A stretch of 64,000 bases of DNA from contig JBBIQY010000002.1 in NCBI GenBank assembly GCA_037442085.1, forward strand, positions 6,583-70,582, written 5' to 3'. The translations under genes and the position numbers were made by a program. The notes below the pieces were generated by a model that worked only from the letters and a program-made list of their open reading frames with translations, made no database searches and was not told the origin of the DNA. The DNA comes from Anaerolineae bacterium (GTDB lineage Bacteria; Chloroflexota; Anaerolineae; Anaerolineales; UBA6663). Below are positions 22,856-56,305 of this stretch, one piece after another; positions within the stretch are counted from its first letter, which is position 1, and each line of letters starts with the position of its first letter.

Positions 22856-24001
22856 ATGCCGCGCATGGCTTTCATCAAACGCGACTTCTCGCACCTCACG
22901 CGCTTCCCTGGCACGCACGGCAATGACTTCGACGTGGTCCTGCAATGGGCCGATAAGCTGGAGAAGCTGCCGGCCCTGCCGTTTGCTCTGCTGCTGCTGG
23001 CGCTGGCCGGCCTGGGCGCGCTGGGCAGCCCGACCTGGGCCGGCGCGCTGTGGCTGTTCCTGCTCGGCGATTGGGCGCTGCTGGAGGCGCTGCCACGCGC
23101 GGGCAAATCCTTCGGGCCGGCCAAGCCGCCGACGCTGGCCCTGGCGCTGGCGCGCCTGCCGTTCGCGCTGCTACCCCAGCCGCTGGCGCTGATCGCCCAA
23201 CTCATCGGCACCGCGCTCGTGGTGTACGGCTTCTGGATCGAGCCCCACCGCCTGACGGTCACCCGGCAGCGCCTGCGCTCGCCCAGGCTCAACCCGAACG
23301 CCCTACCCCTGCGCCTGCTCCATCTCGGCGATTTGCACATCGAACGCGTCACACAGCGCGAGCGCGACCTCAACCGCCTGATCACCGAGCTTCAGCCCGA
23401 CGTCATCGTCTTCAGCGGCGACTTCCTCAACCTCTCCAACATCCACGACCGGGAGGCCTGGGAGCACTGCCGCTCCATCCTCAGAGAGTGGCGCGCGCCG
23501 CTGGGCGTCTACGCCGTCACCGGCAGCCCGGCGGTGGACCAGGACGCCGTCGTGCCGCAGGTGTTGGAGGGGATGCCGCTGCGCTGGCTGCGCGAAGAAA
23601 AGGTGACGCTCACCCACCACGGGCAGACGGTGGACCTCGTCGGCCTGCCCTGCACGCACAAGCCCTTCGCGGATCGCCCGAGCCTCGACCGCCTCCTGAA
23701 CGGGCAGCCGCGGAACTTCACCGTGCTGCTGTACCACTCGCCGGACCTGGCGCCGGAGGCAGCCGAGGCCGGCGTGGATCTGCAACTCTCCGGCCACACG
23801 CACGGCGGCCAGGTACGCCTGCCGTTCTTCGGCGCACTTTATGCCGGGTCGTTATACGGCAAGCAGTTGGAGTGCGGGCGCTACGATGTAAACGGGCTGA
23901 CGCTGTATGTCACGCGCGGGCTGGGGCTGGAGGGCAAAGGCGCGCCGCGCGTGCGCTTCCTCTGCCCGCCGGAGATCATCCTGTGGGAGTTGAGCGGATA
24001 A
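22856..24001 (+). CDS. Membrane-anchored metallophosphoesterase (YaeI/YkuE-like)
   Basis: N-terminal TM helices, then LGDLHIE, SGDFLN and SGHTHGGQVRLP motifs. Confidence 0.8.
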   Translation: MPRMAFIKRDFSHLTRFPGTHGNDFDVVLQWADKLEKLPALPFALLLLALAGLGALGSPTWAGALWLFLLGDWALLEALPRAGKSFGPAKPPTLALALARLPFALLPQPLALIAQLIGTALVVYGFWIEPHRLTVTRQRLRSPRLNPNALPLRLLHLGDLHIERVTQRERDLNRLITELQPDVIVFSGDFLNLSNIHDREAWEHCRSILREWRAPLGVYAVTGSPAVDQDAVVPQVLEGMPLRWLREEKVTLTHHGQTVDLVGLPCTHKPFADRPSLDRLLNGQPRNFTVLLYHSPDLAPEAAEAGVDLQLSGHTHGGQVRLPFFGALYAGSLYGKQLECGRYDVNGLTLYVTRGLGLEGKGAPRVRFLCPPEIILWELSG

Positions 24002-35198: not shown

Positions 35199-37025
35199 AT
35201 GACCAGTCAGCCGCCCCTGTCCCCCCGGCCTACAGCCAGCGGCGGGTTGGCGCGCAGTCTGCTCTGGCTGGTGCTGCCGCTCACTCTCGCGCCGCTTCTG
35301 GTCGCAGCCTATGGCTTCTATCGTCAGGCGGAAGCCGAGCTTGACCGCCGCCTCACCACACAACTCGATACGCTGGTCAACGCCAAACTAGCGCAAATTC
35401 GACAATGGACGGACCAGCAGGTCACGGTCCTTGACGTGCTGGCGCGCGACATCGCGCGGGAGACAATCACCCCGGAAACAGCCGCCGCTCTGCGCCCGCA
35501 ACTGGCCGCGTTCCTCGATGCAAACCCGGCTTATAAGTGCCTCCTCATCGTTGGCGTCACCGATGGCGCCGTCTGGCTCAATGAGGGCGCTGCGCCAGCA
35601 GCGGCGATGTCCTTCTCCGAGAGCTTTCTCCAGCAAGTAAAGTATGAACCGCAGTTCCTGACGCCGCGCTTCTGGCCGGAGCTGGACGCGCAGGTCGTCA
35701 GCCTGGTCGCCACTACGCCCATCGCACCAGCCGAGCAGAGTGCGGTGGCGATCCTGGTCGGCGTGCTACGCCATGAGCCGCTGCTGCGAATCGTCGCGCC
35801 GGCGCCCGGCCTGGGAGCGACCGGCCAGGCCTACCTGGTCAGTGAAGACGGTTACCGCGTCGGCGTCCAGATCATGTCGCCGCGCGCCCGTCCGCGAAGC
35901 GAGACGATACGCCGCGTGCTCGATCAGGCCAGCAGCGGCGGAGGCTTCTACGCCAACCCGGAAGGGGCGACCGTCGTCGGGCGTTACGCCTGGCTGAACG
36001 AACAGCGGCTGGCGCTGTTCGTGGAGCAAGAGTGGGCCGAAGCTGCAGCGCCGCTCGAAAACACGCTGTGGATACTGGGGGCGGTGACCCTGAGCAGTAG
36101 TGTGCTGGTGGTTGTGGTGAGTACGTTCTTCACCCGGCGTCTGACCCGACCCATCCGCGCCTTGACTAACAGCGCCGCGCGCATCGCCGCCGGCGATCTG
36201 ACAGCTCAAGTGGAGATCGAACGCAGCGACGAACTGGGCCTGCTGGCGCAAGCCTTCAACCGCATGAGCGAAGACCTGCGGATTTCCTACCGGACGCTTC
36301 AAACCACCGCTGAGTGGCGCGCCCGACAATTGACGATCACAGCGGAGATGAGCCGCGTCGCCGCTGCCCATCGCAGCCTGGCCCAATTGCTGCCAGAAGT
36401 GACGGCCCTCATCCAGCATCATTTTGGTTACCATGGCGTGCTGGTTTTCCTGACCGATGAGACAGGTCAGTCGTTGCGGCTGCACACCGAACACTATGCG
36501 TCGGTGGCCAGCGGCCGTCCAGCAGGACCAAAGGCCCATCCCCTCACCATCGAGATCGAGTCTGGCTCATTGCCGGGCCACGTTGCGCGCAGCCGTTCGG
36601 CGCGCACAGCCGCTCAGGTGGAAGCCCCGCCCCTGCACCGGCTAGACCCGCGCCTGGCCGAATTCCAATCGGAGGCAGCCCTGCCCTTGACCGTCGGCGA
36701 GCGCCTCATCGGCGTCCTGGTCTGCCTCAGCCGCGAGCCCGACGCCTTCTCAGGCGCAGACTTCGACATCCTGCAAACGCTGACCGATCAGGCCGCCGTG
36801 GCGATCGAGAACTGCCAGCTCTTCGAGCGCCAGCAGAGCCTCTTACGCCTGGAGGAACTGGTACTCACGCTCTCGACGAAAGCGCACCGCTCCCTGAAAG
36901 CCGAGACCATCCTCGAAAGCACCGCTGTGGAGCTGGGCCGAGCGTTGGGCGCGCGCCGGGCCATCGTGCGCCTACAGGGCGGCAGCCCAGGTAACGGCCA
37001 GACGCTGGAGACGGACCCGAAATGA
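35199..37025 (+). CDS. Membrane sensor protein: TM - extracytoplasmic (Cache-like) domain - TM - HAMP - GAF, no output domain
   Basis: HAMP motif RPIRALTNSAARIAAGDLTAQVEIERSDELGLLAQAFNRM. GAF end FSGADFDILQTLTDQAAVAIENCQLF. GGAGGAGG SD. Confidence 0.8.
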   Translation: MTSQPPLSPRPTASGGLARSLLWLVLPLTLAPLLVAAYGFYRQAEAELDRRLTTQLDTLVNAKLAQIRQWTDQQVTVLDVLARDIARETITPETAAALRPQLAAFLDANPAYKCLLIVGVTDGAVWLNEGAAPAAAMSFSESFLQQVKYEPQFLTPRFWPELDAQVVSLVATTPIAPAEQSAVAILVGVLRHEPLLRIVAPAPGLGATGQAYLVSEDGYRVGVQIMSPRARPRSETIRRVLDQASSGGGFYANPEGATVVGRYAWLNEQRLALFVEQEWAEAAAPLENTLWILGAVTLSSSVLVVVVSTFFTRRLTRPIRALTNSAARIAAGDLTAQVEIERSDELGLLAQAFNRMSEDLRISYRTLQTTAEWRARQLTITAEMSRVAAAHRSLAQLLPEVTALIQHHFGYHGVLVFLTDETGQSLRLHTEHYASVASGRPAGPKAHPLTIEIESGSLPGHVARSRSARTAAQVEAPPLHRLDPRLAEFQSEAALPLTVGERLIGVLVCLSREPDAFSGADFDILQTLTDQAAVAIENCQLFERQQSLLRLEELVLTLSTKAHRSLKAETILESTAVELGRALGARRAIVRLQGGSPGNGQTLETDPK

Positions 37026-39901
37026 CACCGCCGTCCGAATCGCGCCCCCATGCGCAGCGCAATGTGCGCCGGATCGGGCGTCTGTTGCTGGTCATCGCCG
37101 CCCTGATTGCCGGAGTGGCCCTCGTCCTGTATCTGGGCGAGGGCGGGCCAGCCGCAGCGCTCCCCGTGCTAGCTGCAGCCGGCGTCGCGATCATGACGGC
37201 GCTGATCAGTCTGAGTCTCAACGCCGCCAGTCGAACCCGCAGCGCCGCCTGGTTGCTGGCCATCTTCGTGATGCTGGCAGCGCCGGGCGCAGTCGCTCTG
37301 TTTGCCAACATCGGCGTGCCCAGCAGCATCCTGCTCCTGATCGCCGTCGGCGCGATCGCCAGCCTGAGCCTGGCCGGGTCCGAGGCGCGCACCATGATCC
37401 TGGCCGGCGTGGCCGTCAGCGTGACGACCCTGAGCCTGGATCTGCTCCTCGAGTCGAATGCGCTCTGGCCACGCCTGACGCTGCCCGACTGGTTTCAGAA
37501 CGGCGCCCTGCCCGTCTTCACGACCGGCGTAATCGCGTTGTTTGGGGTTTTGCTCTGGCGCCAGTTTCCGCGCTACCGCCTGAGCAGCAAACTGTTGTTG
37601 GGCTTCCTCTTTGTGGCGCTGGCGCCGCTCATCCTCACGAGTTGGCGCACCGACCAGGCCCTGCGCGCCAGCCTGACCCGTACCGTCAACCAATCGCTGG
37701 TGGTCGCTGCCTCGCGCACCGCCGCCGACCTCGACAGTTTCCTCACCGCCAACCGTCTCGCCATCTCCGGGCAGGCGCGCCTGCCGCTGTTGAGCGAGTA
37801 CCTGCGCCTGCCCGCCTCCGAGCGTTCGGCCAGCCCCCTGACGCAGCAAACGCGTGACCTGCTCCTCTCCCTGCTGACCGCGCCCGGCCAAGGCGCCCTG
37901 GCCACGGGCCAGACGCGCAACACCTCAGCCTACTTCCTGTTCGATGCCAGCGGCGACCTGGTGTTGAGCACGACCTCCGGCGCGGCCCTTGAGCCGGCCC
38001 AGGCGGAGGCCATCTTCCGAACGCCGTTGGAGACCGGAGAGGCTTACCTCTCGCCCGTCTACTATCGCGGCTCGACCGGCGCTTTTTACCTGGCTGTGCC
38101 TGTTGCCGAACCGGGGGGTACGCCCCTCGGCGTGCTGGCGGCCGAGGTCAACTCGGCCTGGCTCCAGCGCCTCATCCAACTCAACCGGGAGCCGCTCGGG
38201 CCGGGCAGCGAATCGGTGGCAGCCCTGTTCAACGAGGACGGCCTGCGGCTGGCCGACAGCGCCGCCGCCGGCACCAATGCATTGCGGTTCGCCGCGCTGC
38301 CGGCAGCGCCGGACTTGAACAACTTACTGACCCTGGGACGCGCGCCGGCGCGCACGCCGGCCGAGCTGGACGCGCAATTACCGGCGCTGGCGGCGCGGCT
38401 GGCGGACGCCCGGCAGACCGACCAACCGACTTTCTTCGAAGGCCTCATCCACTATGCCGACGACCCTGCCGAGCCGGAGCCGCGCCACTTTGCCGTATTA
38501 CTACCGCTACGCAATGCGCCGTGGATCGTCCTGACATCGCAACCGGAACCGGTGGCCCTGGCTCCGGTGCGCGCTCAGACCCGTACAACGATCCTGCTGG
38601 CGCTGGTCGCCGCCCTGGCTGTGACAGGCCTGTCGGCGATCGCTTCGCGCAACCTGACCCAGCCCATCGTCAGCCTGACCCGGGCGGCAGAGCAGGTGCG
38701 CAGCGGCGACCTTTCCGCGCGCGCGACGCCCGCCGGCGACGATGAGATCACCCAACTCATCAAGACGTTCAACGCCATGACGAGCCAACTGCAAGACACC
38801 CTGAACCGGTCGGAGCAGTTGGTGGCGGAACGCACGGCGCAGCTCCAGGCCACCGCCGACATCAGCCGCGCCACCGCCGGCATCCGCAACCTGAACGACC
38901 TGCTTGAGCTGGCGCTGGAGATGATCCGGGGCCGGTTCGGGTTTTATCACGCTTCGGTCTTTTTACTGGACGACGCCGGCGAATATGCCGTGCTGCGCGA
39001 ATCCACCGGCGAAGTGGGCGCACAGCTAAAAGCGCAAGGGCACCGGCTGGCGATCGGCTCGCGCTCGCTGGTAGGCTGGGTGACGCAGAACCGGCGGCCG
39101 CGCATCGCCCGCGACGTGGCCGACGACCCGTTCCACTTCAAGAACCCGCTGCTGCCCGAGACACGCTCCGAATGCTGCCTGCCGTTGCTGGTCGGCGACC
39201 GCCTGCTGGGGGCGCTCGACGTGCAGAGCCGCGAGCGCGACGACTTCAACGAGAACGACCTGCAGGCGCTGCAGGTGCTGGCCGACCAGTTGAGCATCGC
39301 CATCGAAAACGCCTCCCTCTTCCAGCGCACGCAGGCCGCGCTCGCGGAAGCCCAATCGCTCTACCAGCAGACCCTCAACACCAGTTGGCGCAACACGGCC
39401 ATCGAGCAGAACCTGCTCCCGCGCACCCTGGTCTACGATCTGGAGCCGGGCGGCGCCGAGAGCGACAACCCGATTCAGGTGCCGCTACGCCTGCGCGGCC
39501 AGCTCATCGGCGTGATCGAACTGCATGGGCGGCCCGAGGAGCGGCCGCTCAATGCGCAGGAGCAGGCCGTGCTCGAAACCATCGCCGCGCAAATCGCCTC
39601 GGCGCTGGAGAGCGCGGCGCTCTTGCAGGAAAGCCAGGCCCGCAGCCGGCGCGACCAGCTCATCACCGCCATCACCGACGAGATGCGCTCGTCCCTGAAC
39701 CCGGCCTTCATCGTGCAAAGCGGCATCCGCCAGCTGGGCCGTGCGCTCGGCGCAACCGAGGTCACCCTGCGGCTGCAACCCAAGCCCATCGCCAAAGACT
39801 CGCCCGACATCACACTGCCCAGCGGCGATGGAGAAGCGGGTAGCGCTCCTTCGCAGCCAGCTCCGCTGGCGCCGCCAGCTTCGCTTGCGCATGGGTCATG
39901 A
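37022..39901 (+). CDS. Polytopic membrane sensor: multi-TM - extracytoplasmic domain - HAMP - 2 GAF, no output domain
   Basis: ATGA overlap with the upstream gene. HAMP motif QPIVSLTRAAEQVRSGDLSARA..DEITQLIKTFNAM. GAF ends FNENDLQALQVLADQLSIAIENASLF and LNAQEQAVLETIAAQIASALESAALL. Confidence 0.8.
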   Translation: MTPPSESRPHAQRNVRRIGRLLLVIAALIAGVALVLYLGEGGPAAALPVLAAAGVAIMTALISLSLNAASRTRSAAWLLAIFVMLAAPGAVALFANIGVPSSILLLIAVGAIASLSLAGSEARTMILAGVAVSVTTLSLDLLLESNALWPRLTLPDWFQNGALPVFTTGVIALFGVLLWRQFPRYRLSSKLLLGFLFVALAPLILTSWRTDQALRASLTRTVNQSLVVAASRTAADLDSFLTANRLAISGQARLPLLSEYLRLPASERSASPLTQQTRDLLLSLLTAPGQGALATGQTRNTSAYFLFDASGDLVLSTTSGAALEPAQAEAIFRTPLETGEAYLSPVYYRGSTGAFYLAVPVAEPGGTPLGVLAAEVNSAWLQRLIQLNREPLGPGSESVAALFNEDGLRLADSAAAGTNALRFAALPAAPDLNNLLTLGRAPARTPAELDAQLPALAARLADARQTDQPTFFEGLIHYADDPAEPEPRHFAVLLPLRNAPWIVLTSQPEPVALAPVRAQTRTTILLALVAALAVTGLSAIASRNLTQPIVSLTRAAEQVRSGDLSARATPAGDDEITQLIKTFNAMTSQLQDTLNRSEQLVAERTAQLQATADISRATAGIRNLNDLLELALEMIRGRFGFYHASVFLLDDAGEYAVLRESTGEVGAQLKAQGHRLAIGSRSLVGWVTQNRRPRIARDVADDPFHFKNPLLPETRSECCLPLLVGDRLLGALDVQSRERDDFNENDLQALQVLADQLSIAIENASLFQRTQAALAEAQSLYQQTLNTSWRNTAIEQNLLPRTLVYDLEPGGAESDNPIQVPLRLRGQLIGVIELHGRPEERPLNAQEQAVLETIAAQIASALESAALLQESQARSRRDQLITAITDEMRSSLNPAFIVQSGIRQLGRALGATEVTLRLQPKPIAKDSPDITLPSGDGEAGSAPSQPAPLAPPASLAHGS

Positions 39902-42900
39902 ACTTGAAGGAACGCGACAGCGGCATCTTCCCGCGTGAGCATTTGACGCCCGAGCTGCGCCTCGCCCTGCGCAACGCCCGCGCCGAGGTGCTCGATCAAT
40001 TGCTGCGCGGCGTGCGCTGGGTAGCGCTGCTGGCGCTGGCCACCTCGGCGCTGAGTGCGGCCTTCACCGGCATGTGGGCGCCGACCCTCATCTATGCCGT
40101 CATCTTCCTGGCCGTTCTAGCGTTATCACTGGCGCGCACCTGGCCGCTGACCAGGCGCGGCGGCCTCTTCCTCGGATTGGTGTACGTGCTGGGGGTGGTC
40201 AGCCTATTCAGCTCCGGCCTGGAAGGCTCCGGCCGGGTGATCCTGCTGGGCTTCGCCGTGTTAACCACAGTCCTGTTCGGCGCGCGGGCCGGGCTGAGCG
40301 CCTTGCTGGCTGTCCTGCTGACGTGGGCGCTCCTGGGCTTCGTGGTCACGACGGGCCTGTGGCAACCCCTGGACCCGGCCAGTTCTCTGGTCTGGCAGGA
40401 TTGGCTGGTTGCCGGGGCGACCCTGGCGCTGTTTATCGTGGCGCTCATCATCCCGCAACGCCAGTTCCTGGAGACACAGGCCTTTGCGCTGGCGACTTCC
40501 GAACAAAAACGCGAGCTGGAAAAAACGCGCGAGGCTCTGCTGCAGCGGACAGCCGAGCTCGAGGCGGCTACACAGGCGCTCAGCCTGACCAATGAGGAAT
40601 TGCTGGCGCAGTCGCGGGTGCTGGAGCGTCGCGCCTCACAGTTGGCCGTCAGCGCCGAGGTGGCGCGCGCCGCCGCCACCCTGCATGATTTACCCACGCT
40701 GCTCGATGGCGCTGTCCGCCTCATCAGCGAGAAGTTCGGGTTTTATCACGCTGGGATTTTCCTGCTGGACGAAGACGGGGAGTGGGCGGTGCTGCGAGCG
40801 GCCAGCAGCGCCGGCGGGCAGCGGATGCTCGCTCGCCGCCACCGCTTGCGCGCAGCGAAGGTCGCCGGTGGGCAGCAGGGCATCGTCGGTTTCGTCGCCG
40901 CCTCCGGTCAGCCGCGCATCGCCCTCAATGTCGGCGAGGACGCCGTGCACTTCCGCAACCCCGATCTGCCGGACACACAGTCCGAGATGGCGCTGCCGCT
41001 GCGCGGCAGCGCCGGTGTGATCGGCGCGCTCGACGTGCAATCCACGCAGCTCAACGCCTTCAGCGACGACGACATCGTCGCCCTGCAATCGCTGGCCGAC
41101 CAATTGGCGGTCGCCATCGAAAACGCGCGGCTGCTGGCCGAACAGGAACGCAACCTGGAGGCGCTGCGGCAGTTGCAAAGACAGGCGCGCGAACAGGGCG
41201 GCGGCATGCCGGTCTCGGCGCTGCCACAAGCGTATCGCTATGACGGCGTGGACACGGCGCCGCTGCCCATCGAGGACGCCGCCACCGAGCCGGGCGCGCT
41301 GGAGATCCCCATTCGCGCCGGCGACCTGACGCTGGGCACCATTGCCATCAAGCGGGAGCAGCAGGTCTGGTCCGACAACGAGCTCCAACTGATCGAAGCC
41401 ATCGCCGAGCGCATGGGGCTGGCGCTGGAAAACGCCCACCTGTACTTCGATGCCCGCACCAATGCCCAGCGCATGGCGGCACTGTCGGAAGCGGCGCTGG
41501 AGCTGACCGGCCCGCAATTCAGCCGCGCCGAGCTGCTGCAGCTCATTGCGCGCCGCGCCCGCGCCCTGCTGCGCGCCGATAGCGCCGACCTGTGGCTGCC
41601 CGTGCCGGATTCCGACGAAATCGAACTGGCCGTGACCCATCCCACCGTCTCCTATTCGCTACTGGGCCGCCGCCTGAAAATCGGCGAAGGGTTGGCAGGC
41701 AGGGCGCTGGCCACCGGCGGGCCGGTGACGTTGGACGATTACCAGACTCAGCCCGGCCAGATGAGCGCCCTGGCCGTGCCCATGATCTGGCAGACGGAGA
41801 CGCTGGGCGTGCTGGCCGTCAACCGGCTGCAGCCGGACTGGCGCTACTCCGCCGAGGATGAGACCGTAGCCCGGCTGTTCGCTGCCGCCGCCGCCTCGGC
41901 CCTCTCCAATGCCCGCCTGCTGGAGGAGACGCGTCGCCGCCTGGTCGAACTGCAAACCATCAACAGTATCAGCGCCATCCTCAGCTCGCAGGCTAACCTG
42001 GAGGTGATGCTGCGCCAGGTGGGCGACAAGATCATGGAGATCTTCGGCGTCCAGACCGGCTACATCGCCCTGTTCGACCCGGCCCGCCGGCAACTGGGGT
42101 TTCCATACAGCCTGGAAAAGGGCCAGCCGGTATCCACGCCGCCCATCCCGCTTGGGCACGGCCCAACGTCGCTCGTCTTTCAGACGCGCCAGCCGTTGCT
42201 GATCAACCAGGATGCCCCGCTCCGCCTGCAGGAATTGGGCGCCTACCTCGGGAGCGAGCCGGCGCTCTCGTACCTGAGCGTGCCCATCATCGTCGGCGAC
42301 GAAGTCACCGGCATCCTCAACGTGCAGAGCACGACTCAGGCCGGGTTGTTCTCCGAGAACGACATCCAGCTGCTGAGCACTATTGCCGCCAATATCGGCG
42401 TCGCCATCGAAAACGTGCGCTTGTTCAAACAAACGCAGAGCGCACTGGCCGAGACGGAGGCCCTCTACCGTGCCAGCGCCGAGCTGAACACGGCCCAGGG
42501 CTTCAATGAGGTGCTCGCCGTGCTACGCCGCCAGACGGTGCTGCGGCGTGCCCATACGCTGCAACTGCACTACTTCGAGCGCCCCTGGACGGCGCGCGAG
42601 GTGCCGGGCCGCAGCGAAATCATCGCGCACTGGAGCATCGTCCAGCCCGAGGCCCTCGACCAACTCTTCCCTGTCGCGGCCTGGATGGCGCGCAATCTGC
42701 GGCCGGATGAGGCGCTGCTCATCGAGAATCTGCAGCACGATCCGCGTCTGGATGAGATCAGCCGCAACACGTACCGGCTACGCTACAGCGCGCAGGCTGC
42801 GCTGTTCACGCCGTTGGTGGTCGGCGGCGAGTGGGTGGGCTACCTGGCCGGCTTCATCGGGGAGGCCACGACGTTCAGCGAGGCGGAACGGCTGCGGCTG

Positions 42901-45687
42901 GTGAACCTGGGCCAGCAGGCAGCGGCGTTGATCGAGAACCTGCGCAGCATCGCCGTCATCGAGCGCCGCGCCGAGCAGTTGGGCGCGCTCAACCGCCTGG
43001 CCGAGGCCGCCGTCTCCAATCTCGACCTGGACGTCATGCTGACCTCCGTCTGCCGCGAAATCGCTCAGGCATTCCAGGCGCACAGCGTCAACATCGCGCT
43101 GCTCAACGCCGAGCGCGATGCGCTGGTTGTGGCCGCGGATTACAGCGTGGCTGCTGATCACAGCATGGCCGCCGAGCAGGCGCAAGAGAACAGCACGGCC
43201 GGGGTCGTCATCCCAATCGCCAGTAATCCTTCCCTCCGGCGCGTGGTCGAAACCCATCGTTCGCTGGTCCTCACCGATGTGCAGACCCGTTCGTTGGGCG
43301 CGTTCAGCGCGCCGAGCGAGACGCGGCACGATCGGATGCACGAGCGCCAAGCCGAAAGCCTGCTGCTCACGCCGCTGGTTGCGCGCGGCGAGGTCATCGG
43401 CGTCATCGGCATTGATAGCGACCAGCCGCGGCGCACCTTCACCGACGCCGAAGTCTCGCTGGCCGAGACCATGGCGGGCCAGATTTCCAACGCGATCGAG
43501 AACAGCCGCCTGTACCAGCAGGCGCAGCGGCGAGCGCAGCAACTCATCACCGCCGCCGAGGTCAGCCGCGCCGCCACCACGCTGCTCGACGAGCGCGAAC
43601 TATTACAGCGCGCGGTCGAGCTGATCCATGAGCGCTTCAATCTGTACTACGTCGGCTTGTTCCTGCTGGACGAACACGGTCACTGGGCCGTGTTGCGCCA
43701 CGCCGTCGGCGGCGCTCCGGAAGGCGCGGCGTTGCTGCTGCGCCAGGGCCACCAACTGGAGGTCGGCGGACAATCCATGGTGGGCTGGGCCATCGCCCAC
43801 CGCGCTGCGCGAATCTCGTCGGACGTGGCCGAAGAGACGGTGCGCTACCCCAACCCGCTGACGCCGGACACGCGCTCGGAGATGGCGCTGCCGCTGATCG
43901 TTGGGCCAAGCGTGCTCGGCGCCATCAGCGTGCAATCCACCCAGCGTAACGCCTTCACCGAGGCCGACGTCGCCGTGCTACAAACGATGGCCGATCAGAT
44001 CGCGGCTTCCCTGCAAAATGCCCGCCTCTTCCGCCGCGTCAAGGCGCAAGAGCGTTCGGCCAGCGCCCTGGCCCGCATCGCACAATCCGTCTCCGGCAAA
44101 CTGGAAGAGCAGGAGGTGTGGGCCACCCTCGCCGCCGAGCTGTTGGACACCTTCCAGGCCGACGGCGTCGTCATCTATGGTTGGAACGCGGCGGACGAGA
44201 CGGTGCTGCCGCGGGTGGTGCTGTGCGAGCCGGAGGCCGCCGACGCGCTGCGCTGGCCGACGCCCGGCCAGCCCACGCCGGTGAGCGCGCATCCGGAACT
44301 GGCGCAGGCCATCACGGCGGAGACACGCCAGGTGCAGCGACTTGCCTCGAGCATGTTCGGCGAGCCGCGTGAGAGCGTCATCGTCCCGCTACACATCATG
44401 GGCCAGCTCGACAGCCTGGTGGCGCTGGTGCATTCCACCGGCTCTGCCGGCGCCGATCACCTGACGACGGACGACTTCAACCTGCTGGAGGCTGCCGTCC
44501 GCAGCGCCGAGGCCGCGGTGCAGATTGCGCGCCTGTACGCCCTGCAACGCGAGACCGCCGAGCGTCTGCAGGAAGTTGACCGGCTCAAGACCCAGTTCCT
44601 GGCCAACATGAGCCACGAGCTGCGCACACCGCTCAACTCCATCATCGGCTTCTCACGCGTCATCCTCAAGGGCATTGACGGCCCGCTCACCGAAATGCAG
44701 CAGCAGGACCTGACCTCGATCTACAACTCCGGCCAGCATCTGCTCGGCCTGATCAACGATATCCTCGACCTGTCGCGCATTGAGGCCGGCAAGATCGAGC
44801 TATCTTTCGACCGGGTATACCTGGGCGACATCTTCGAAGGCGTGCTGGCCACCACGCGCGGCCTGGTGCGCGACAAATCCATCGAACTGCACAAGAACGT
44901 GCCGGCAGATCTGCCGCCGGTGCGGGCCGACGCCACGCGCGTGCGGCAGGTGCTGCTCAACCTGTGCTCCAACGCTGCCAAGTTCACCGAACGTGGCGCG
45001 ATCACCCTCAGCGCCAGTGTCCTCCCCACCGAGTCGGTCGTGCAGATTAGCGTCACGGACACCGGGCAGGGCATCCCGGCCCATGAAATGGACAAGCTGT
45101 TCGAGCGCTTCTCGCAGTTGGATGGATCGCCAACGCGGCGCGCGGGCGGCACCGGCCTGGGCTTGAACATCAGCCGCCATCTGGTCGAACTGCACGGCGG
45201 GCGCATCTGGGCCGAGAGCGCCGGCGTGCCGGGCCGAGGCTCCACCTTCAGCTTCACGCTGCCGATCTGGGTTCCCGAGCCGGAACCTGAGCCGGGCGGC
45301 CCGCCGCTCATCCTCGTCATCGAGGATGACCGCGGCGTCTCCATGCTTTATCGCCGCTACCTGGAGCCGAACGGCTACCAGTTGCTGACCGTCTCGCGAA
45401 GCGAGGAAGCGGTGACGCGCGCCATAGCGGCGCGGCCGGCGGCCATCCTGCTCGATGTGCTTATGCCCAACAAGGACGGCTGGCAGGTGCTGACCGAGTT
45501 GAAGCGCAATCCGGCCACGAGCGCCATCCCTGTCATCGTCTGCACCGTCACCGACGAGCGGGAGCGCGCGCTGCAACTGGGGGCCGATGAACACCTGCTC
45601 AAGCCGATTCTCGAAAGCGACCTGACGCGCGCGCTCAATCGGCTGCCCGGCCTGAGCCGTAACAACGGCGCGACGCAGCACCGCTGA
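39898..45687 (+). CDS. Hybrid sensor histidine kinase: N-terminal TM block, ~8 GAF modules, HisKA, HATPase_c, C-terminal receiver
   Basis: ATGA overlap with the upstream gene. 8 GAF-terminal helices. FLANMSHELRTPL, GTGLGLNISR, and receiver ILVIEDD...ILLDVLMPNKDG. Confidence 0.85.
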   Translation: MNLKERDSGIFPREHLTPELRLALRNARAEVLDQLLRGVRWVALLALATSALSAAFTGMWAPTLIYAVIFLAVLALSLARTWPLTRRGGLFLGLVYVLGVVSLFSSGLEGSGRVILLGFAVLTTVLFGARAGLSALLAVLLTWALLGFVVTTGLWQPLDPASSLVWQDWLVAGATLALFIVALIIPQRQFLETQAFALATSEQKRELEKTREALLQRTAELEAATQALSLTNEELLAQSRVLERRASQLAVSAEVARAAATLHDLPTLLDGAVRLISEKFGFYHAGIFLLDEDGEWAVLRAASSAGGQRMLARRHRLRAAKVAGGQQGIVGFVAASGQPRIALNVGEDAVHFRNPDLPDTQSEMALPLRGSAGVIGALDVQSTQLNAFSDDDIVALQSLADQLAVAIENARLLAEQERNLEALRQLQRQAREQGGGMPVSALPQAYRYDGVDTAPLPIEDAATEPGALEIPIRAGDLTLGTIAIKREQQVWSDNELQLIEAIAERMGLALENAHLYFDARTNAQRMAALSEAALELTGPQFSRAELLQLIARRARALLRADSADLWLPVPDSDEIELAVTHPTVSYSLLGRRLKIGEGLAGRALATGGPVTLDDYQTQPGQMSALAVPMIWQTETLGVLAVNRLQPDWRYSAEDETVARLFAAAAASALSNARLLEETRRRLVELQTINSISAILSSQANLEVMLRQVGDKIMEIFGVQTGYIALFDPARRQLGFPYSLEKGQPVSTPPIPLGHGPTSLVFQTRQPLLINQDAPLRLQELGAYLGSEPALSYLSVPIIVGDEVTGILNVQSTTQAGLFSENDIQLLSTIAANIGVAIENVRLFKQTQSALAETEALYRASAELNTAQGFNEVLAVLRRQTVLRRAHTLQLHYFERPWTAREVPGRSEIIAHWSIVQPEALDQLFPVAAWMARNLRPDEALLIENLQHDPRLDEISRNTYRLRYSAQAALFTPLVVGGEWVGYLAGFIGEATTFSEAERLRLVNLGQQAAALIENLRSIAVIERRAEQLGALNRLAEAAVSNLDLDVMLTSVCREIAQAFQAHSVNIALLNAERDALVVAADYSVAADHSMAAEQAQENSTAGVVIPIASNPSLRRVVETHRSLVLTDVQTRSLGAFSAPSETRHDRMHERQAESLLLTPLVARGEVIGVIGIDSDQPRRTFTDAEVSLAETMAGQISNAIENSRLYQQAQRRAQQLITAAEVSRAATTLLDERELLQRAVELIHERFNLYYVGLFLLDEHGHWAVLRHAVGGAPEGAALLLRQGHQLEVGGQSMVGWAIAHRAARISSDVAEETVRYPNPLTPDTRSEMALPLIVGPSVLGAISVQSTQRNAFTEADVAVLQTMADQIAASLQNARLFRRVKAQERSASALARIAQSVSGKLEEQEVWATLAAELLDTFQADGVVIYGWNAADETVLPRVVLCEPEAADALRWPTPGQPTPVSAHPELAQAITAETRQVQRLASSMFGEPRESVIVPLHIMGQLDSLVALVHSTGSAGADHLTTDDFNLLEAAVRSAEAAVQIARLYALQRETAERLQEVDRLKTQFLANMSHELRTPLNSIIGFSRVILKGIDGPLTEMQQQDLTSIYNSGQHLLGLINDILDLSRIEAGKIELSFDRVYLGDIFEGVLATTRGLVRDKSIELHKNVPADLPPVRADATRVRQVLLNLCSNAAKFTERGAITLSASVLPTESVVQISVTDTGQGIPAHEMDKLFERFSQLDGSPTRRAGGTGLGLNISRHLVELHGGRIWAESAGVPGRGSTFSFTLPIWVPEPEPEPGGPPLILVIEDDRGVSMLYRRYLEPNGYQLLTVSRSEEAVTRAIAARPAAILLDVLMPNKDGWQVLTELKRNPATSAIPVIVCTVTDERERALQLGADEHLLKPILESDLTRALNRLPGLSRNNGATQHR

Positions 45688-45717: not shown

Positions 45718-47385
45718 ATGCCCACTACGGTCGAGATGGTTTGCATGGATTGTGGCGCACGTGCGCCGTTTGCGCCGATGCCGATGGCATGCGTGCGCTG
45801 CGGCAGCGACTGGTTCGAAGCCCGCTACGACTACGCCGCCGTCGCGGCCAGCTTTGCCGCGCCCACCTCCGGCGCCCACATGCGCCGTAACCCCGGCTTA
45901 TGGCGCTATCACGAGCTGCTGCCGCTGCGTGACCCGGCGCACGCCATCACGCTGGGCGAGGGCAACACGCCCCTCGTGCCGGCCACCAACCTGGGGCTGA
46001 TGCTCGGCTGCTCCAACCTCTTCATCAAGGATGAGCGGCAGAACCCGAGCGGCTCGTTCAAGGATCGGCAGGCCGCGCTGGCCGTCTCGGTGATGAAGGA
46101 AGCCGGCATCCGCGACGCGGTGGTGGCCTCCACCGGCAATGTTGCCATCTCCTACGCCGCCTACGGCGCGCGCGCCGGCATCAAAGTCTATGCCTTCCTC
46201 ACCTCGCTCGTGCCTCCCGAGAAGATGCGCGAGTGTGCGCTCTATGGCGCCCAGGTCATCAAAGTCACCGCCACCTATGATCAGTCGAAGGAGCTGGCGC
46301 AGGCCTTCGCCCGCCAGCGCGGCATGTATTACGACCGGGGCCTGCGCAGCATCGCCTCCGTCGAGAGCATGAAGACGCTGGCGTATGAGGTCGCCGAGCA
46401 GCTTGCATGGCAGGGGCCGGAGCCGGCCACGCCCTGGCGTGCCCCCGACTGGTATCTCCAATCCATCAGCGGCGGGCTGGGGCCGGTCGGCGCGATGAAG
46501 GGCTTCCGCGAATTGCAGGCCATGGGCCTGATTGACCGGATGCCGCGCCTGGCCTGCTTCCAGGTGGAGGGCTGCGCGCCGATGGTGACCGCCTACAAAC
46601 GCGGCAGCGCAACGCCGGATGTGGTCGCCTCGCCGCGCACCCGCATCGGCACGCTGGCGACGGGCAACCCGGGCCGCGCCTACAATTTTCTGCGTGACTA
46701 CCTGCTCCAGCACGGCGGCGTTCTGGAGTCCGTCAGCGACGACGAGACCTTCCGCGCCATGCACGTGATGGCAAAGATCGAGGGCTTCAGCATGGAGCCG
46801 GGCGCAGCGGCGGCCTTTGCCGGTCTGTTCAAGCTGGTGCAGCGCGGCCTCATCCAGCCGGACGAAACGGTGGTGGTGAACTGCACCGGCCACACCTTCC
46901 CGGTGGAGAGCGAAGTGTTGGGCGACGGCTGGGCGCAGGAGTTAGGCGAAGCACCGGCGACCACACCGGAGCCGGAGGGCGTGCTGGCCGCTTTGCAACG
47001 GTTGGACGCGCGCGTACGCTCGATTGCCATCATTGATGATACGCCGGACGCGGTGCGGCTGCTGCGCCGCATCCTACAGGCCCACGGCGATTACGCTATC
47101 CACGAGGCCGATAACGGGCGCGCCGGCCTGGCCCTGATCCGCGAGCGCCGGCCCGACCTCGTCATCCTGGACTTGATGATGCCCGAGGTGGACGGCTTCG
47201 CCGTGTTGGACGCCCTGCGAGCCGACGAGGCCACGCGCGATATCCCCGTCATCGTCGTCACCGCCAAAACCCTGACCCCGGAGGAGCGTGAGCGACTAGA
47301 CGGCCAGGCCAGCTCACTGTTTCAGAAAGGCGAGTTCATGGACGACGCGCTATTCGATGATGTGCGCAAGGCATTGCCGGAGTGA
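45718..47385 (+). CDS. Threonine-synthase-like fold-type II PLP enzyme fused to a C-terminal receiver domain
   Basis: N-terminal Zn ribbon CMDCG...CVRCG, GEGNTPLV, PLP-lysine motif NPSGSFKDRQA. C-terminal IAIIDDT...VILDLMMPEVDG...VVTAKT. Confidence 0.8.
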   Translation: MPTTVEMVCMDCGARAPFAPMPMACVRCGSDWFEARYDYAAVAASFAAPTSGAHMRRNPGLWRYHELLPLRDPAHAITLGEGNTPLVPATNLGLMLGCSNLFIKDERQNPSGSFKDRQAALAVSVMKEAGIRDAVVASTGNVAISYAAYGARAGIKVYAFLTSLVPPEKMRECALYGAQVIKVTATYDQSKELAQAFARQRGMYYDRGLRSIASVESMKTLAYEVAEQLAWQGPEPATPWRAPDWYLQSISGGLGPVGAMKGFRELQAMGLIDRMPRLACFQVEGCAPMVTAYKRGSATPDVVASPRTRIGTLATGNPGRAYNFLRDYLLQHGGVLESVSDDETFRAMHVMAKIEGFSMEPGAAAAFAGLFKLVQRGLIQPDETVVVNCTGHTFPVESEVLGDGWAQELGEAPATTPEPEGVLAALQRLDARVRSIAIIDDTPDAVRLLRRILQAHGDYAIHEADNGRAGLALIRERRPDLVILDLMMPEVDGFAVLDALRADEATRDIPVIVVTAKTLTPEERERLDGQASSLFQKGEFMDDALFDDVRKALPE

Positions 47386-51262: not shown

Positions 51263-51268
51263 TATAAT
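51263..51268 (+). promoter_or_regulatory. TATAAT box 8 nt upstream of ATG 51277 (possible leaderless transcript)
   Basis: gttataatcgcccctgATG. Shares the gttataatcgcc motif with the pyk promoter. No SD is possible in the 8-nt gap. Confidence 0.4.
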
Positions 51269-51276
51269 CGCCCCTG

Positions 51277-52104
51277 ATGAATGCGCCTGCTCAAGCCTCT
51301 GCCCCGCTGCCCGCCGTCCACCTGCGCTGCACGCAATGCGGCACGGAGCTGCATCCCGAAGAAAGCCAACGCTTCATCACCTGCCCCAACTGCAACAGCA
51401 CCATCTACCTCGACAAGTCGCGCGTGGTCTTGCACTACGCCCTGGCGCCGACCGTAGATGACCGGAAGGCGCGCGGCCTGTTGGCGCAGTGGATGGCCGG
51501 CAATGAGACCGTGAAAGACCTGGACCGGAAGGCGCAGGTCGTCGCGCAGACCTTCGAGTATTTTCCGCTCTGGTATTTCAAATGGCGCGTCCAGGGCAAG
51601 GAAGAGATCATGTTGGAGCCGGCCGCCGCAACTTCGGTCAGCGAACTGCGGCGGCTGAACCTGCCTGCCGGCGACCTTCGGCGGTACGATCCGAGCCTGG
51701 ACGGCCAGGCCCACCCCCCAACCGTCCCCCTGCAGACAGCGCTCGGCTGGTTACAGGGGCGCGGCCTCAATGTCGCCAATATCGCCGAAACGGCGCTGGT
51801 GCACGTGCCGCTGTACACCTTCAAGTACACCTTCAACAACAAGACCTACACGGCGCTGGTGGAGGCCGCTACGGGCAAGGTCTTCGCCAACGTCTTCCCA
51901 CCCAAAGCCGAGGCCCCGTACCTGTTGGCCGGCTGCGCGTCCGCGCTGGTCTTCTTCGTCCTGGCATGGATTCCGCTCATCGGCGCGGCGACCGTCGGCG
52001 ATGAGAGCGGCTACTTCGGCGGGCTGGCGGTTTGCGCAGGCCTGGGCTGTCTGACGGCGCCGGTGTTGTTTGCCATCGCAGCCTGGGTAGCGGCGAAGGT
52101 GTGA
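51277..52104 (+). CDS. Zinc-ribbon membrane protein, triad member A (unknown function)
   Basis: CTQCG...CPNC ribbon, YFPLWYF and VPLYTFKY..ATGKVF motifs, 2 C-terminal TM helices. Paralogous to the next gene. Confidence 0.7.
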   Translation: MNAPAQASAPLPAVHLRCTQCGTELHPEESQRFITCPNCNSTIYLDKSRVVLHYALAPTVDDRKARGLLAQWMAGNETVKDLDRKAQVVAQTFEYFPLWYFKWRVQGKEEIMLEPAAATSVSELRRLNLPAGDLRRYDPSLDGQAHPPTVPLQTALGWLQGRGLNVANIAETALVHVPLYTFKYTFNNKTYTALVEAATGKVFANVFPPKAEAPYLLAGCASALVFFVLAWIPLIGAATVGDESGYFGGLAVCAGLGCLTAPVLFAIAAWVAAKV

Positions 52105-52163
52105 CTCCCCGAACGCACCCCGGCATGCGGCGTTACTGAAAGTCGCTTCGCTTTCTCACGAAC

Positions 52164-53222
52164 ATGTCGGTCGAGAAAACACTTTACGGTCTGAACTGCC
52201 CACGCTGCGGCGGCATGGTTCCCATCCCGGAGGGACAAGCGATCGTCATCTGTCCGTACTGCGATTTGCGCGCCCTGGTGCAAGCGCCGCAGACTGACGG
52301 CGAGCGCGGCGTGCGGCGCTATCAGGCCCCATGCCGCATCAATCAGGCCGCCGCCGGCCAGAAGCTCAAGGATTTTCTCGACAGTCATTGGGCCATCGCC
52401 CGGAACGCAAAGCGTCAGGCGCAACTCAGCGAGCTGTTCCTGGCCTACATCCCGTTCTGGACGATGTGGGCGCGCGTGCTGGCCTGGGTGTTCGGGCAGG
52501 AGCGCGTCGGCAGCGGCAAGAGCAAGCGCTGGGTGGCGCGCGAGCGCAAGATCACCGAGGACATGAGCTGGAACGGCGCGGCCTGCGATGTGGCGGAGTT
52601 CGGCGTGAACCGGGTGCCGTTGAGGCTGACGACAGGCGAGCTGGAAGCCTTCGACCCCGACCGGCTGCACGCGCAGGGCCTGGTCTTCGAGCCGATCACT
52701 TCGATGAGCGAGGCCCGGAATGCAGCCGAGGCCGAGTTCACCCGCCGCGTGCAGAGGCAATCCAACCTGGGCCGAATCTCACAGGCGTTTACGCGCTTCA
52801 TCAACCAGCGTTTCGGGCTGGTCTATTATCCACTCTGGGTGCTGCGCTATCTCCATCGCGGGCGGGCGTACCAGGTGGTGGTGGACGGCCACTCCGGCGA
52901 GATTTTGTACGGGCGCGCGCCGGGCAACACCTGGTATCGCGCCGGAATGCTGATCGCCGGCATGGCCGCCGGCGCATTCGTAGCCGTCAACGGCCCGCTG
53001 CTCTCGCTATGGTTCATGGGTAACGCCAGCGGCGACGACGGCGAGGGCCTGCTCGCCGCTGCCCTGGTCACCTTTCTCATCGGCGTCGGGCTGATGCTGA
53101 CAGGTTACAACGCTTTCCGCTACGGCGAGATCTATGAGTTTCAGAAGTACGCGGCCGAACAGCCCAATGCCTTCACCGCCGCAATGGCGCGGGTGAAACA
53201 ATGGACTCGGTCGTCCGACTGA
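52164..53222 (+). CDS. Zinc-ribbon membrane protein, triad member B (unknown function)
   Basis: CPRCG...CPYC, YIPFWTMW, YYPLWVLRY..HSGEILYG, C-terminal TM helices. Confidence 0.7.
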   Translation: MSVEKTLYGLNCPRCGGMVPIPEGQAIVICPYCDLRALVQAPQTDGERGVRRYQAPCRINQAAAGQKLKDFLDSHWAIARNAKRQAQLSELFLAYIPFWTMWARVLAWVFGQERVGSGKSKRWVARERKITEDMSWNGAACDVAEFGVNRVPLRLTTGELEAFDPDRLHAQGLVFEPITSMSEARNAAEAEFTRRVQRQSNLGRISQAFTRFINQRFGLVYYPLWVLRYLHRGRAYQVVVDGHSGEILYGRAPGNTWYRAGMLIAGMAAGAFVAVNGPLLSLWFMGNASGDDGEGLLAAALVTFLIGVGLMLTGYNAFRYGEIYEFQKYAAEQPNAFTAAMARVKQWTRSSD

Positions 53223-53740
53223 CCCCCCTGCTCTGCGCTCACTGCCAGACGCAACTGCCGGCCCAGCCGGACGAGACGGCATGGCGCTGCGCACAGTGCG
53301 GCGCCGGCTGGGCGCTGGACACGGTCAACGACGTGCTTCAGCCCATCGCCCTGCACTTCAGCCGCCGGCTCGACCCGCGCACGCCGGGCCGCCCGTTCTG
53401 GGTGGCGATCGGCACGGTCACGCTGCAGCGCGGCACGTACAGCGGCGACCAGACGCACGCCGCCGAGGCCTTTTGGAGCCAGCCGCGCCGCTTCTTCCTA
53501 CCGGCCTTCACCTGTTCGCTGGATCTGCTGCTGGAGTTGAGCCGCGAGCTATTGCTCAAGCCTCCGGATTTGCAGGACGGCGCCCCGGCGCCGTTCATCG
53601 CCGTCACCGTCTCCGCCTATGACCTGCAGCCGCTGGCCGAGTTCGTCGTCTTCAGCTTCGAGGCCGAGCGCAAGGATCAGCTCAGGGAGTTGCAGGTGCG
53701 CGTCCAGCTGCAACGACCGGAAATTTGGGTGTTGCCCTGA
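53201..53740 (+). CDS. Zinc-ribbon protein, triad member C (soluble, unknown function)
   Basis: CAHCQ...CAQCG ribbon and the GRPFWVAIG motif. 22-nt overlap with member B. Confidence 0.6.
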   Translation: MDSVVRLTPLLCAHCQTQLPAQPDETAWRCAQCGAGWALDTVNDVLQPIALHFSRRLDPRTPGRPFWVAIGTVTLQRGTYSGDQTHAAEAFWSQPRRFFLPAFTCSLDLLLELSRELLLKPPDLQDGAPAPFIAVTVSAYDLQPLAEFVVFSFEAERKDQLRELQVRVQLQRPEIWVLP

Positions 53741-55921: not shown

Positions 55922-56305
55922 TCAGTAAGGCGGCTGGAGGGTAAACGGGACGACGCGTTCGTCCACCAGCTGCTTTTCGTCGGGACGATCGTCGTCGGCA
56001 GGATAGTAGAGCGCCACATGCAACGTGTGGTCGCCCTGAGGCTCCGGTCCGCGCAGATGCAGCGTGAACTCGAAATCCTGCTCTATCGCCTCGATCAGGC
56101 TCAAGCTGGCCACAACATGACCGGTGGCATTGGTGACCCAGGCGTCCACACTGGGGCGCTCTACAAACGGCAGAAACCTGAGCAGCAGTCTGACGCGCCG
56201 CCCATCGGCGTAGGGTAACACCCGCACCTCGGCAAAGCGCATCTCGCTGCGCGTCAGGGGAACGGGGATGTCTTCCGGACTCTCGTAGAGGGGGAGGTTA
56301 GCCAT
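55922..56305 (-). CDS. Hypothetical protein (127 aa)
   Basis: ATG 56305 (MANLPLYESPEDIP...). GC3-biased. No motif recognised. Confidence 0.5.
   Translation of the reverse strand: MANLPLYESPEDIPVPLTRSEMRFAEVRVLPYADGRRVRLLLRFLPFVERPSVDAWVTNATGHVVASLSLIEAIEQDFEFTLHLRGPEPQGDHTLHVALYYPADDDRPDEKQLVDERVVPFTLQPPY

Follow-up and report, generated by a model that had tools for sequence, protein, structure and literature searches.

SPFH proteins, among them stomatin, prohibitin and flotillin as well as HflK/C, organise membranes in all domains of life. To our knowledge, the route by which anchorless members of the YdjI/SamI type reach the membrane is known only for Bacillus subtilis. There, YdjI/SamI needs the membrane proteins YdjG/YdjH to arrive at the membrane and then recruits PspA (PMC8581546; bioRxiv 10.64898/2026.02.06.704340), and YdjG is built from zinc ribbons, a YpeB-related domain and a transmembrane (TM) segment (PMC11237479). 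In the SPFH-NfeD operons (FloT-YuaF/NfeD2, QmcA-YbbJ, YqiK-YqiJ) the SPFH protein is paired with a small membrane protein that bears a beta-rich domain, and some SPFH operons also carry an ATPase and a hydrolase of the phospholipase D (PLD; HKD) family (PMC11237479). Here we describe three adjacent genes, A, B and C, within 64,000 nucleotides (nt) of DNA from an Anaerolineae bacterium (assembly GCA_037442085.1, contig JBBIQY010000002.1, positions 6,583-70,582 of the forward strand), the whole of which is referred to below as the window. We propose, tentatively and with a little less than even confidence, that their products are subunits of a heteromeric sub-membrane platform for SPFH-type scaffolds; we place considerably more confidence in the narrower proposal that they form a heteromeric complex at the cytoplasmic side of the membrane. 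Literature searches centred on Band_7_1 (PF13421) and on the combination of SPFH, zinc ribbon and PepSY returned no description of such a module.

The likeness to the PspA-SamGHI system is one of gene content, in that relatives of the triad lie beside a gene for an anchorless Band_7_1 SPFH protein with zinc fingers, encoded next to membrane proteins. The differences are nevertheless considerable. SamGH comprises two partners, whereas A, B and C are three, one of them soluble; YdjG has two N-terminal zinc ribbons followed by a TM segment and a YpeB-related NTF2-like domain, whereas A and B each have a single ribbon and a C-terminal TM hairpin, with soluble domains that are predicted to be cytoplasmic. 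The SPFH gene of B. subtilis shares an operon with the genes of its two membrane partners and with pspA; no gene of the PspA_IM30 family was seen in the annotated loci, and the SPFH gene is adjacent neither in the window nor in any Anaerolineales locus. YdjG and YdjH were compared by description, and neither A, B and C nor 65 diverse relatives gave a Pfam match to the TPM (YdjH) or TcaA/NTF2-type domains. The SPFH-NfeD operons that carry an ATPase and an HKD hydrolase echo the PLD and ATPase neighbours of Anaerolineales triads described below. NfeD itself, however, places an OB-fold domain C-terminally after its TM segments, whereas here the soluble domain is N-terminal to the hairpin and of unmatched fold; these operons also have no counterpart of the ribbons or of the third, soluble subunit, and NfeD (PF01957) matched none of A, B, C and the 65 relatives at E <= 1. 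The triad would thus act like the SPFH-partner systems SamGH and NfeD while probably belonging to neither, given that TPM, NfeD and NTF2-type domains are absent, the fold is unmatched and there is a soluble third subunit.

Conservation, gene order and neighbourhoods of the triad

The three genes are same-strand open reading frames (ORFs) at the positions at which an earlier sequence-only reading had placed them. Gene A (51277..52104, +) encodes 275 aa with a zinc ribbon, a beta-rich domain of predicted cytoplasmic location and a C-terminal TM hairpin; gene B (52164..53222, +; 352 aa) is a paralogue of A with insertions and a conserved tail, also predicted to be cytoplasmic; and gene C (53201..53740, +; 179 aa) encodes a soluble zinc-ribbon protein whose alpha/beta body is of unmatched fold. 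The ORF coordinates of B and C overlap by 22 nt (53201..53222, +), as had been noted before, which makes translational coupling likely, and an identical 22-nt overlap is found in two distant Anaerolineales loci (L001 and L004).

Homologues are numerous for A (1146) and B (830), and 28 close ones were found for C. They are abundant in Anaerolineales metagenome-assembled genomes (MAGs) and also present in Anaerolinea thermophila and A. thermolimosa; among the best 120 of the 1146 A homologues, identity is 60-87 % and the named organisms are Anaerolineales/Chloroflexota MAGs. Typical identities to the window across Anaerolineales are 51-73 % for A, 48-70 % for B and 38-56 % for C, with 48-68 % for a neighbouring THUMP methyltransferase and the somewhat higher 67-80 % for a phosphoribosyltransferase, so that A and B appear to be conserved comparably to the THUMP methyltransferase. 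The superfamily extends much further: in an exhaustive profile search with the alignment of A and B, 4231 clusters formed at 50 % identity were matched at E <= 1e-3, 1259 of them at E <= 1e-10, and these include archaeal proteins from Methanofollis and Methanocorpusculum. The chromosomal context of the triad is syntenic across Anaerolineales, and the triad lies beside xseA/dxs in an unclassified bacterium (L088) and beside RNA polymerase genes in Methanocorpusculum. Taken with the comparable conservation and the absence of PADLOC matches, this context suggests a housekeeping character.

We assembled 171 loci from GTDB genomes, metagenomes and look-ups, and scored their ORFs with a hidden Markov model (HMM) for each of the three proteins. 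In 99 of these loci all three genes are present in the order A>B>C, and no rearranged order was found among the 171; nearly all other loci are incomplete at contig ends, and five have extra or tandem A/B-type copies (L030, L038, L051, L085 and L086). The Methanocorpusculum triad is matched by the HMMs of A, B and C with E-values of 1.7e-42, 2e-49 and 7.9e-11 respectively, and further distant triads were confirmed in L088 and L172. Junctions between the genes overlap or nearly abut, in Anaerolineales as well as in L088 and Methanocorpusculum, and B and C are fused into a single polypeptide in independent lineages: in P0293, in P0337 and twice in L171. In these fusions C comes either straight after the B tail or past two additional hydrophobic, TM-like stretches, and it therefore stays on the ribbon side in both cases. 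That A, B and C act as one unit is well supported by this collinearity across Bacteria and Methanocorpusculum, together with the tight junctions, the fusions and the uniform ribbons. Because the order is invariant, the junctions packed, B and C recurrently fused and the ribbon spacing kept, a physical A-B-C complex is the most economical reading, and the suggestion made from the window alone, that two anchored paralogues and a soluble partner form a membrane complex, gains good support from these comparisons.

The neighbouring ORFs of all loci were clustered and cluster representatives annotated; the counts that follow cover those loci with enough flanking sequence, and denominators accordingly differ by feature. 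In loci outside Anaerolineales, where B is 23-39 % identical to that of the window and GC content ranges from 28 to 72 %, a gene for an SPFH Band_7_1 (PF13421) protein with a C-terminal double zinc ribbon (SPFH-DZR) lies directly upstream of A and on the same strand in 37 of 41 cases. This protein is anchorless and has the architecture of B. subtilis YdjI/SamI, namely an SPFH domain, a stretch of low complexity and a zinc finger. The SPFH-DZR gene is in turn usually preceded by one encoding a helical protein of about 175 aa, x184, which occurs in 26 loci (for example L144:7539-8069, L092:7611-8120 and L089:8830-9345), always directly upstream of the SPFH-DZR gene; one locus has the permuted order A-B-C-x184-SPFH. 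Since the flanks of the five-gene block vary and one locus is permuted, it is the block that is the conserved unit. The x184 protein has the invariant motifs P-G-[YF]-x-G-Y, R..D..R and A..G-Y and no relative in Pfam or PDB; its assignment as a PspA/ESCRT-III protein was considered and set aside, there being no Pfam or PDB support and generic coiled-coil matches only. At least three protein families, A/B, C and x184, are thus without a Pfam model or a PDB fold match.

The neighbours are different in Anaerolineales-type loci. A tandem-HKD PLD-family protein follows C in 42 of 62, and an 837-aa HerA/FtsK-like P-loop ATPase follows in 27 of 57; neither was found in loci outside Anaerolineales (0/48 for PLD, 0/29 for HerA), and the window and its closest relatives (L005, L007, L008 and L010) have neither partner nearby. 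Both the SPFH linkage elsewhere and the PLD/HerA linkage in Anaerolineales lay beyond the view of the sequence-only reading, and this context is the most informative of all.

Several loci show variations on the triad. In Methanofollis sp. W23 (L085:6681-11430) four tandem B-like paralogues stand in its place, the last two without a called ribbon, and this cluster adjoins both a ParE toxin/antitoxin pair and a gene for an N6 DNA methyltransferase. The Anaerolineae MAG GCA_016926595.1 (L171:797-8847) has two tandem sets, each of A and a B~C fusion (604 and 606 aa); after them comes a gene for a 389-aa protein in which a DUF3592 domain accompanies several zinc ribbons. In Methanocorpusculum (L090:5903-6927, -) two small zinc-ribbon proteins are encoded divergently upstream of the triad, one of which has a coiled coil and a C-terminal double ribbon, like the tail of a bacterial SPFH-DZR protein without the SPFH domain.

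Protein anatomy and paralogy

Each of the three proteins begins with two CxxC knuckles in a small beta-ribbon, as expected of a C4 zinc ribbon. The cysteines are C18, C21, C36 and C39 in A (CxxC-x14-CxxC; 51328..51393, +), where all four are invariant in the alignment and many zinc-ribbon Pfam models match below threshold, and C12, C15, C30 and C33 in both B (52197..52262, +) and C (53234..53299, +), where they are invariant or nearly so. The sequence-only reading was right to see four such cysteines in each gene, but the spacing between the knuckles is exactly x14 and not the x13-19 that it gave; across related loci the same spacing is found in 115 of 121 A proteins, 147 of 164 B proteins and all 111 C proteins.

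That A and B are true paralogues is highly significant by sequence comparison. BLASTP aligns them with an E-value of 3e-10, and hhalign with a probability of 98.9 % and E 1.7e-17 over 223 columns, which take in the entire soluble part and the first TM helix; the A alignment alone has 76 invariant columns. The same paralogy had been claimed for C, and there it does not hold: the ribbon is the sole part of C matching A and B, with profile matches limited to 41-45 ribbon columns (hhalign probability 84 % with A and 56 % with B), and once the ribbon is removed nothing is left (0.1-0.7 %). Full three-way paralogy was consequently rejected. A (Y/R)xP(F/L)W motif had also been read as common to the three; hhalign does align the P(F/L)W of C with A/B, yet not significantly (3.5 %). 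Homology of the RPFW hairpin of C to the A/B units and an internal repeat of 'helix + P-F/L-W hairpin' within A/B (2-9 %) were likewise unsupported, hhalign giving 0.1-12 % over these comparisons taken together and 28 % for A unit 2 against B unit 1.

Directly before the membrane hairpin, A and B share a PepSY-like beta unit. In A this is VHVPLYTFKY...VEAATGKVFAN (51799..51891, +), which aligns with the matching unit of B (LVYYPLWVLRYLHRGRAYQVVVDGHSGEILYGRAPG; 52818..52925, +), the most conserved signature of the superfamily. Residues P223, Y229, D241 and P253 of B are invariant across bacteria and archaea, and the B motif, used as a pattern, retrieved 483 related metagenome stretches. Residues 177-202 of A match PF03413 PepSY with 12.7 bits (E 0.16; the gathering threshold is 24 bits), and PepSY matches at E < 1 were obtained for 10 of 65 A/B members, the best with E 0.0016 and all under the Pfam cut-off. 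SHLD2_C also recurs weakly (13 of the 65, best E 0.016); of the families other than zinc ribbons that recur, PepSY alone has a named fold. The PepSY signal falls on the unit YYPLWxxRYxYxGRxYxxxVDGxTGxxL, and it is in this beta-hairpin signature that the likeness to YpeB, the M4 propeptides and PepSY_TM resides. The secondary structure of the B model (helix 181-199; strands 204-231, 234-241 and 247-254) is compatible with the helix and four-stranded sheet of PepSY. Known PepSY domains are mostly extracytoplasmic; unlike them, the unit here is on the zinc-ribbon side, which is predicted to be cytoplasmic.

The sequence-only reading had described C-terminal TM helices in A and B and a soluble C, and Kyte-Doolittle analysis bears this out, with two hydrophobic segments in each of A and B and none in C. 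The hairpin of A comprises residues ~211-242 and 246-275 (51907..52101, +), is supported by alignment conservation and ends in a conserved WVAAKV C-terminus. That of B (52929..53123, +) comprises helices 256-287 and 293-320 in an AlphaFold2 model, with hydrophobic segments at 262-282 and 292-318, and is followed at the predicted cytoplasmic exit of the second helix by an FRYGE motif (53115..53129, +), in which F318, R319, G321 and E322 are invariant in the B alignment and R319 is nearly invariant across the superfamily. The loop between the two helices, external in the predicted topology, is only about 10 residues long. As no hydrophobic segment was found between the ribbon and the C-terminal hairpin of A/B, both ends and the whole soluble part of the two proteins are predicted to be cytoplasmic.

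The AlphaFold2 model of B (pLDDT 80.8) shows the ribbon, helices, a sheet whose strands are unusually long, both TM helices and a helix at the C-terminus, with the last strand (247-254) leading straight into TM helix 256-287; that of C has a pLDDT of 92.3. Foldseek comparison of both models with PDB gave no match at E < 0.2. For C, searches of PDB and BFVD matched the ribbon of about 41 residues only, BFVD returning LysW-like ribbons and neither library anything past the ribbon at E < 0.1, and the C ribbon superposes on LysW-type ribbons with a root-mean-square deviation of 2.2-3.3 A. Sequence-profile searches of PDB for the triad proteins were empty, and the matches that A, B and C obtained in Pfam, NCBIfam and PADLOC were confined to zinc-ribbon models and below threshold, as were those of the 65 diverse relatives. 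The earlier statement that the proteins fall in no characterised family accordingly stands, these searches revealing nothing past the ribbon.

A proposed sub-membrane platform and alternative roles

In the model that we favour, A and B would insert through their C-terminal hairpins so that the ribbons and beta domains lie on the cytoplasmic surface of the membrane, and soluble, cytoplasmic C would dock on B. In the window organism, transcription of the three genes would start at a promoter that consists of a -10 element only and would yield a leaderless mRNA, with C translationally coupled to B. The resulting platform may serve as a receptor that tethers soluble, anchorless clients, the client in most lineages being the YdjI/SamI-type SPFH (Band_7_1) double-ribbon protein together with x184. 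The platform would then play a part parallel to that of SamG/SamH in B. subtilis: it would tether an SPFH scaffold by which the membrane is organised or protected. The partners encoded nearby in Anaerolineales would instead be the PLD-family (HKD) hydrolase and the HerA/FtsK-type ATPase, and the sub-clade of the window would have a bare platform.

Several observations weigh against this model. Neither an SPFH nor an x184 gene lies within 10 kb of the triad in any Anaerolineales-type locus (0/65), and there is none anywhere in the 64-kb window, so that the SPFH link for the window organism is extrapolated from relatives in which B is 23-39 % identical; two archaeal and two bacterial loci are also without an adjacent SPFH gene. 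The chemistry suggested by the PLD and HerA neighbours could be that of nucleic acids and not of the membrane, and the PepSY-like assignment of the A/B unit is sub-threshold. Homology to YdjG, YdjH or NfeD was not detected at the level of Pfam domains, and the resemblance to those systems is therefore one of logic and not of family. Complex formation, topology, SPFH binding and physiological role are what we infer in the model; gene anatomy, paralogy, conservation, order, fusions, neighbourhoods and promoter conservation are read from the DNA itself.

The Anaerolineales neighbours raise an alternative, in which the triad would serve an anti-phage or other conflict system as its membrane sensor or effector, and the PLD nuclease and HerA ATPase would be the catalytic parts. 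The PLD protein does score best against nuclease models of the NucT, DrmC and DpdK type and the ATPase matches HerA and mad8 defence models, and both are frequent in Anaerolineales loci; the tandem B-like paralogues beside a ParE toxin and an N6 methyltransferase in Methanofollis, and the paralogue expansion and duplicated sets of L171, would also suit a conflict system. Every PLD and HerA score is, however, far under the family cut-offs, the two genes are absent from loci outside Anaerolineales and from the window, and PADLOC-DB 2.0 contains no family that matches A, B or C at E <= 0.01. The syntenic position beside housekeeping genes in Anaerolineales, L088 and Methanocorpusculum, with conservation as high as that of such neighbours and vertical inheritance, is also at odds with it, and we regard a conflict role as improbable. 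The same ATPase might instead indicate a platform for DNA handling or division in filamentous Anaerolineae, which would recruit a HerA/FtsK-type translocase and a nuclease, for example in septal DNA clearance or DNA uptake. In NCBIfam it matches best CedD and CedB, which are DNA-translocating ATPases, and TraD, a coupling protein; all these matches are weak, confined to the P-loop region and far under cut-offs. A ComEC gene is nearby in L001, and a precedent for a zinc-ribbon membrane anchor of a division protein is provided in archaea by haloarchaeal CdpC, which anchors FtsZ1 (bioRxiv 10.64898/2026.07.16.738847). The likeness to CdpC is that of a zinc-ribbon protein that holds a soluble partner, cytoskeletal or scaffold, at the membrane; its architecture is different, with neither TM hairpins nor a beta domain, and kinship was rejected as there is no evidence of homology. 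Since in most lineages and in the window the module is without such an ATPase, and since it also occurs in Methanomicrobiales and low-GC lineages, for which filamentous growth is not a demonstrated common trait, a role in DNA handling or division seems slightly less probable again than one in conflict.

An N-terminal cytoplasmic zinc-binding domain followed by a membrane anchor is a common anti-sigma layout, and A and B in their predicted topology fit that design. They could thus be transmembrane signalling proteins, either anti-sigma factors or stress sensors like SamGH, with a mainly transcriptional output; SamGH has been proposed to signal when not restrained by SamI (bioRxiv 10.64898/2026.02.06.704340), and a gene for a sigma factor of the sigma-70/extracytoplasmic function (ECF) type lies within a few kb in 15 loci. 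That gene is, however, never adjacent, being separated by MutS or placed downstream, and it is absent from most loci and from that of the window. The external loop of about 10 residues leaves almost nothing outside the cell with which to sense, and the HxxxCxxC anti-sigma motif was not found in A/B. Of the alternatives set out here, signalling appears to us the least probable.

Should the platform model be true, the module would be the missing membrane partner for a large and phylogenetically wide set of YdjI/SamI-type SPFH proteins. A bolder version, which we consider unlikely as a whole, is that x184, SPFH-DZR, A, B and C together make up an ancient and unrecognised five-component machine for membrane maintenance in Bacteria and Archaea, in which A-B-C, of novel fold, would offer a universal docking site at the inner membrane face. 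The soluble client could be exchanged there: most lineages would use an SPFH cage, and Anaerolineales a lipid hydrolase of the PLD family with a HerA-type ATPase. Such a machine, if real, would be a functional counterpart of the PspBC or SamGH receptors, put together from entirely different proteins.

The promoter of A and other features of the window

The hexamer TATAAT had been seen 8 nt before the first ATG of A and taken as a sign of leaderless transcription. It occupies 51263..51268 (+), with 8 nt between it and the downstream ATG at 51277, and would be the -10 element of a putative leaderless transcript start. The hexamer contains a TAA at 51265-51267 that is in frame with A, and A therefore cannot begin further upstream. 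Comparison supports the promoter strongly. Of 77 non-identical orthologous loci, 67 have an exact TATAAT upstream of A, at a distance of 5-8 nt from the start in 63 of the 77 (6 nt in 36 loci, 7 nt in 13 and 8 nt in 12). In six of the other ten the equivalent place is taken, as judged by eye, by TACAAT or TAAAAT. The exact hexamer is preceded in 46 loci by TGC, an extended -10, the usual sequence being TGCTATAAT. Since the spacer is variable and the window has an in-frame stop, a coding constraint is excluded as the cause of this conservation. A consensus scan of the region found no -35 partner or sigma-70 -35/-10 pair. A -10 box (TANNNT or TATAAT) so close to the start codon that transcription would begin at or beside it, with no Shine-Dalgarno sequence, is the geometry described for bacterial leaderless genes. 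Their share, in Chloroflexi genomes found to contain them, was estimated at about 5 % of genes, and their signal is TAtaaT (PMC3160421). That the A-B-C transcript is leaderless is thus strongly supported by comparative evidence, and the promoter of A would be a clean example, validated by comparison, of a leaderless operon promoter in Chloroflexota.

Gene models in databases for some homologues of A (P0184 and P0265; loci L012, L043 and L065) run too far upstream and read through this promoter; they translate TGCTATAAT as 'CYN', the peptide 'ICYN' corresponding to ATC-TGC-TAT-AAT.

Leaderless-type starts seem to be recurrent in the genome from which the window derives. There are only three exact TATAAT hexamers in the window, and long ORFs begin 7-8 nt after two of them. 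Apart from that of A, a 127-aa ORF at 55922-56305 (-), with no Pfam match, has TATAAT 7 nt before its ATG, and a Metallophos phosphoesterase gene at 22865-24001 (+) has TACAAT 7 nt before the ATG at 22865.

The gene upstream of A encodes a major facilitator superfamily (MFS) transporter and ends at 51255, and the downstream neighbour of C is a convergent gene for a multidrug and toxic compound extrusion (MATE) transporter. Scans of the triad region gave no structured-RNA match in Rfam and no intrinsic terminator by consensus. Other neighbours in the window encode a pyruvate kinase, an EamA transporter, a NUDIX protein and a cystathionine-type enzyme dependent on pyridoxal phosphate (PLP). Further upstream, a gene at 45718-47385 (+) encodes a PLP-dependent (PALP) enzyme with a response-regulator receiver domain fused to its C-terminus. 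Before it, at 37022-45687 (+), a gene for a 959-aa dCache-HAMP-GAF protein overlaps by 4 nt with that of a hybrid histidine kinase of 1929 aa, whose domains are MASE11, five GAF, HisKA/HATPase and a receiver.

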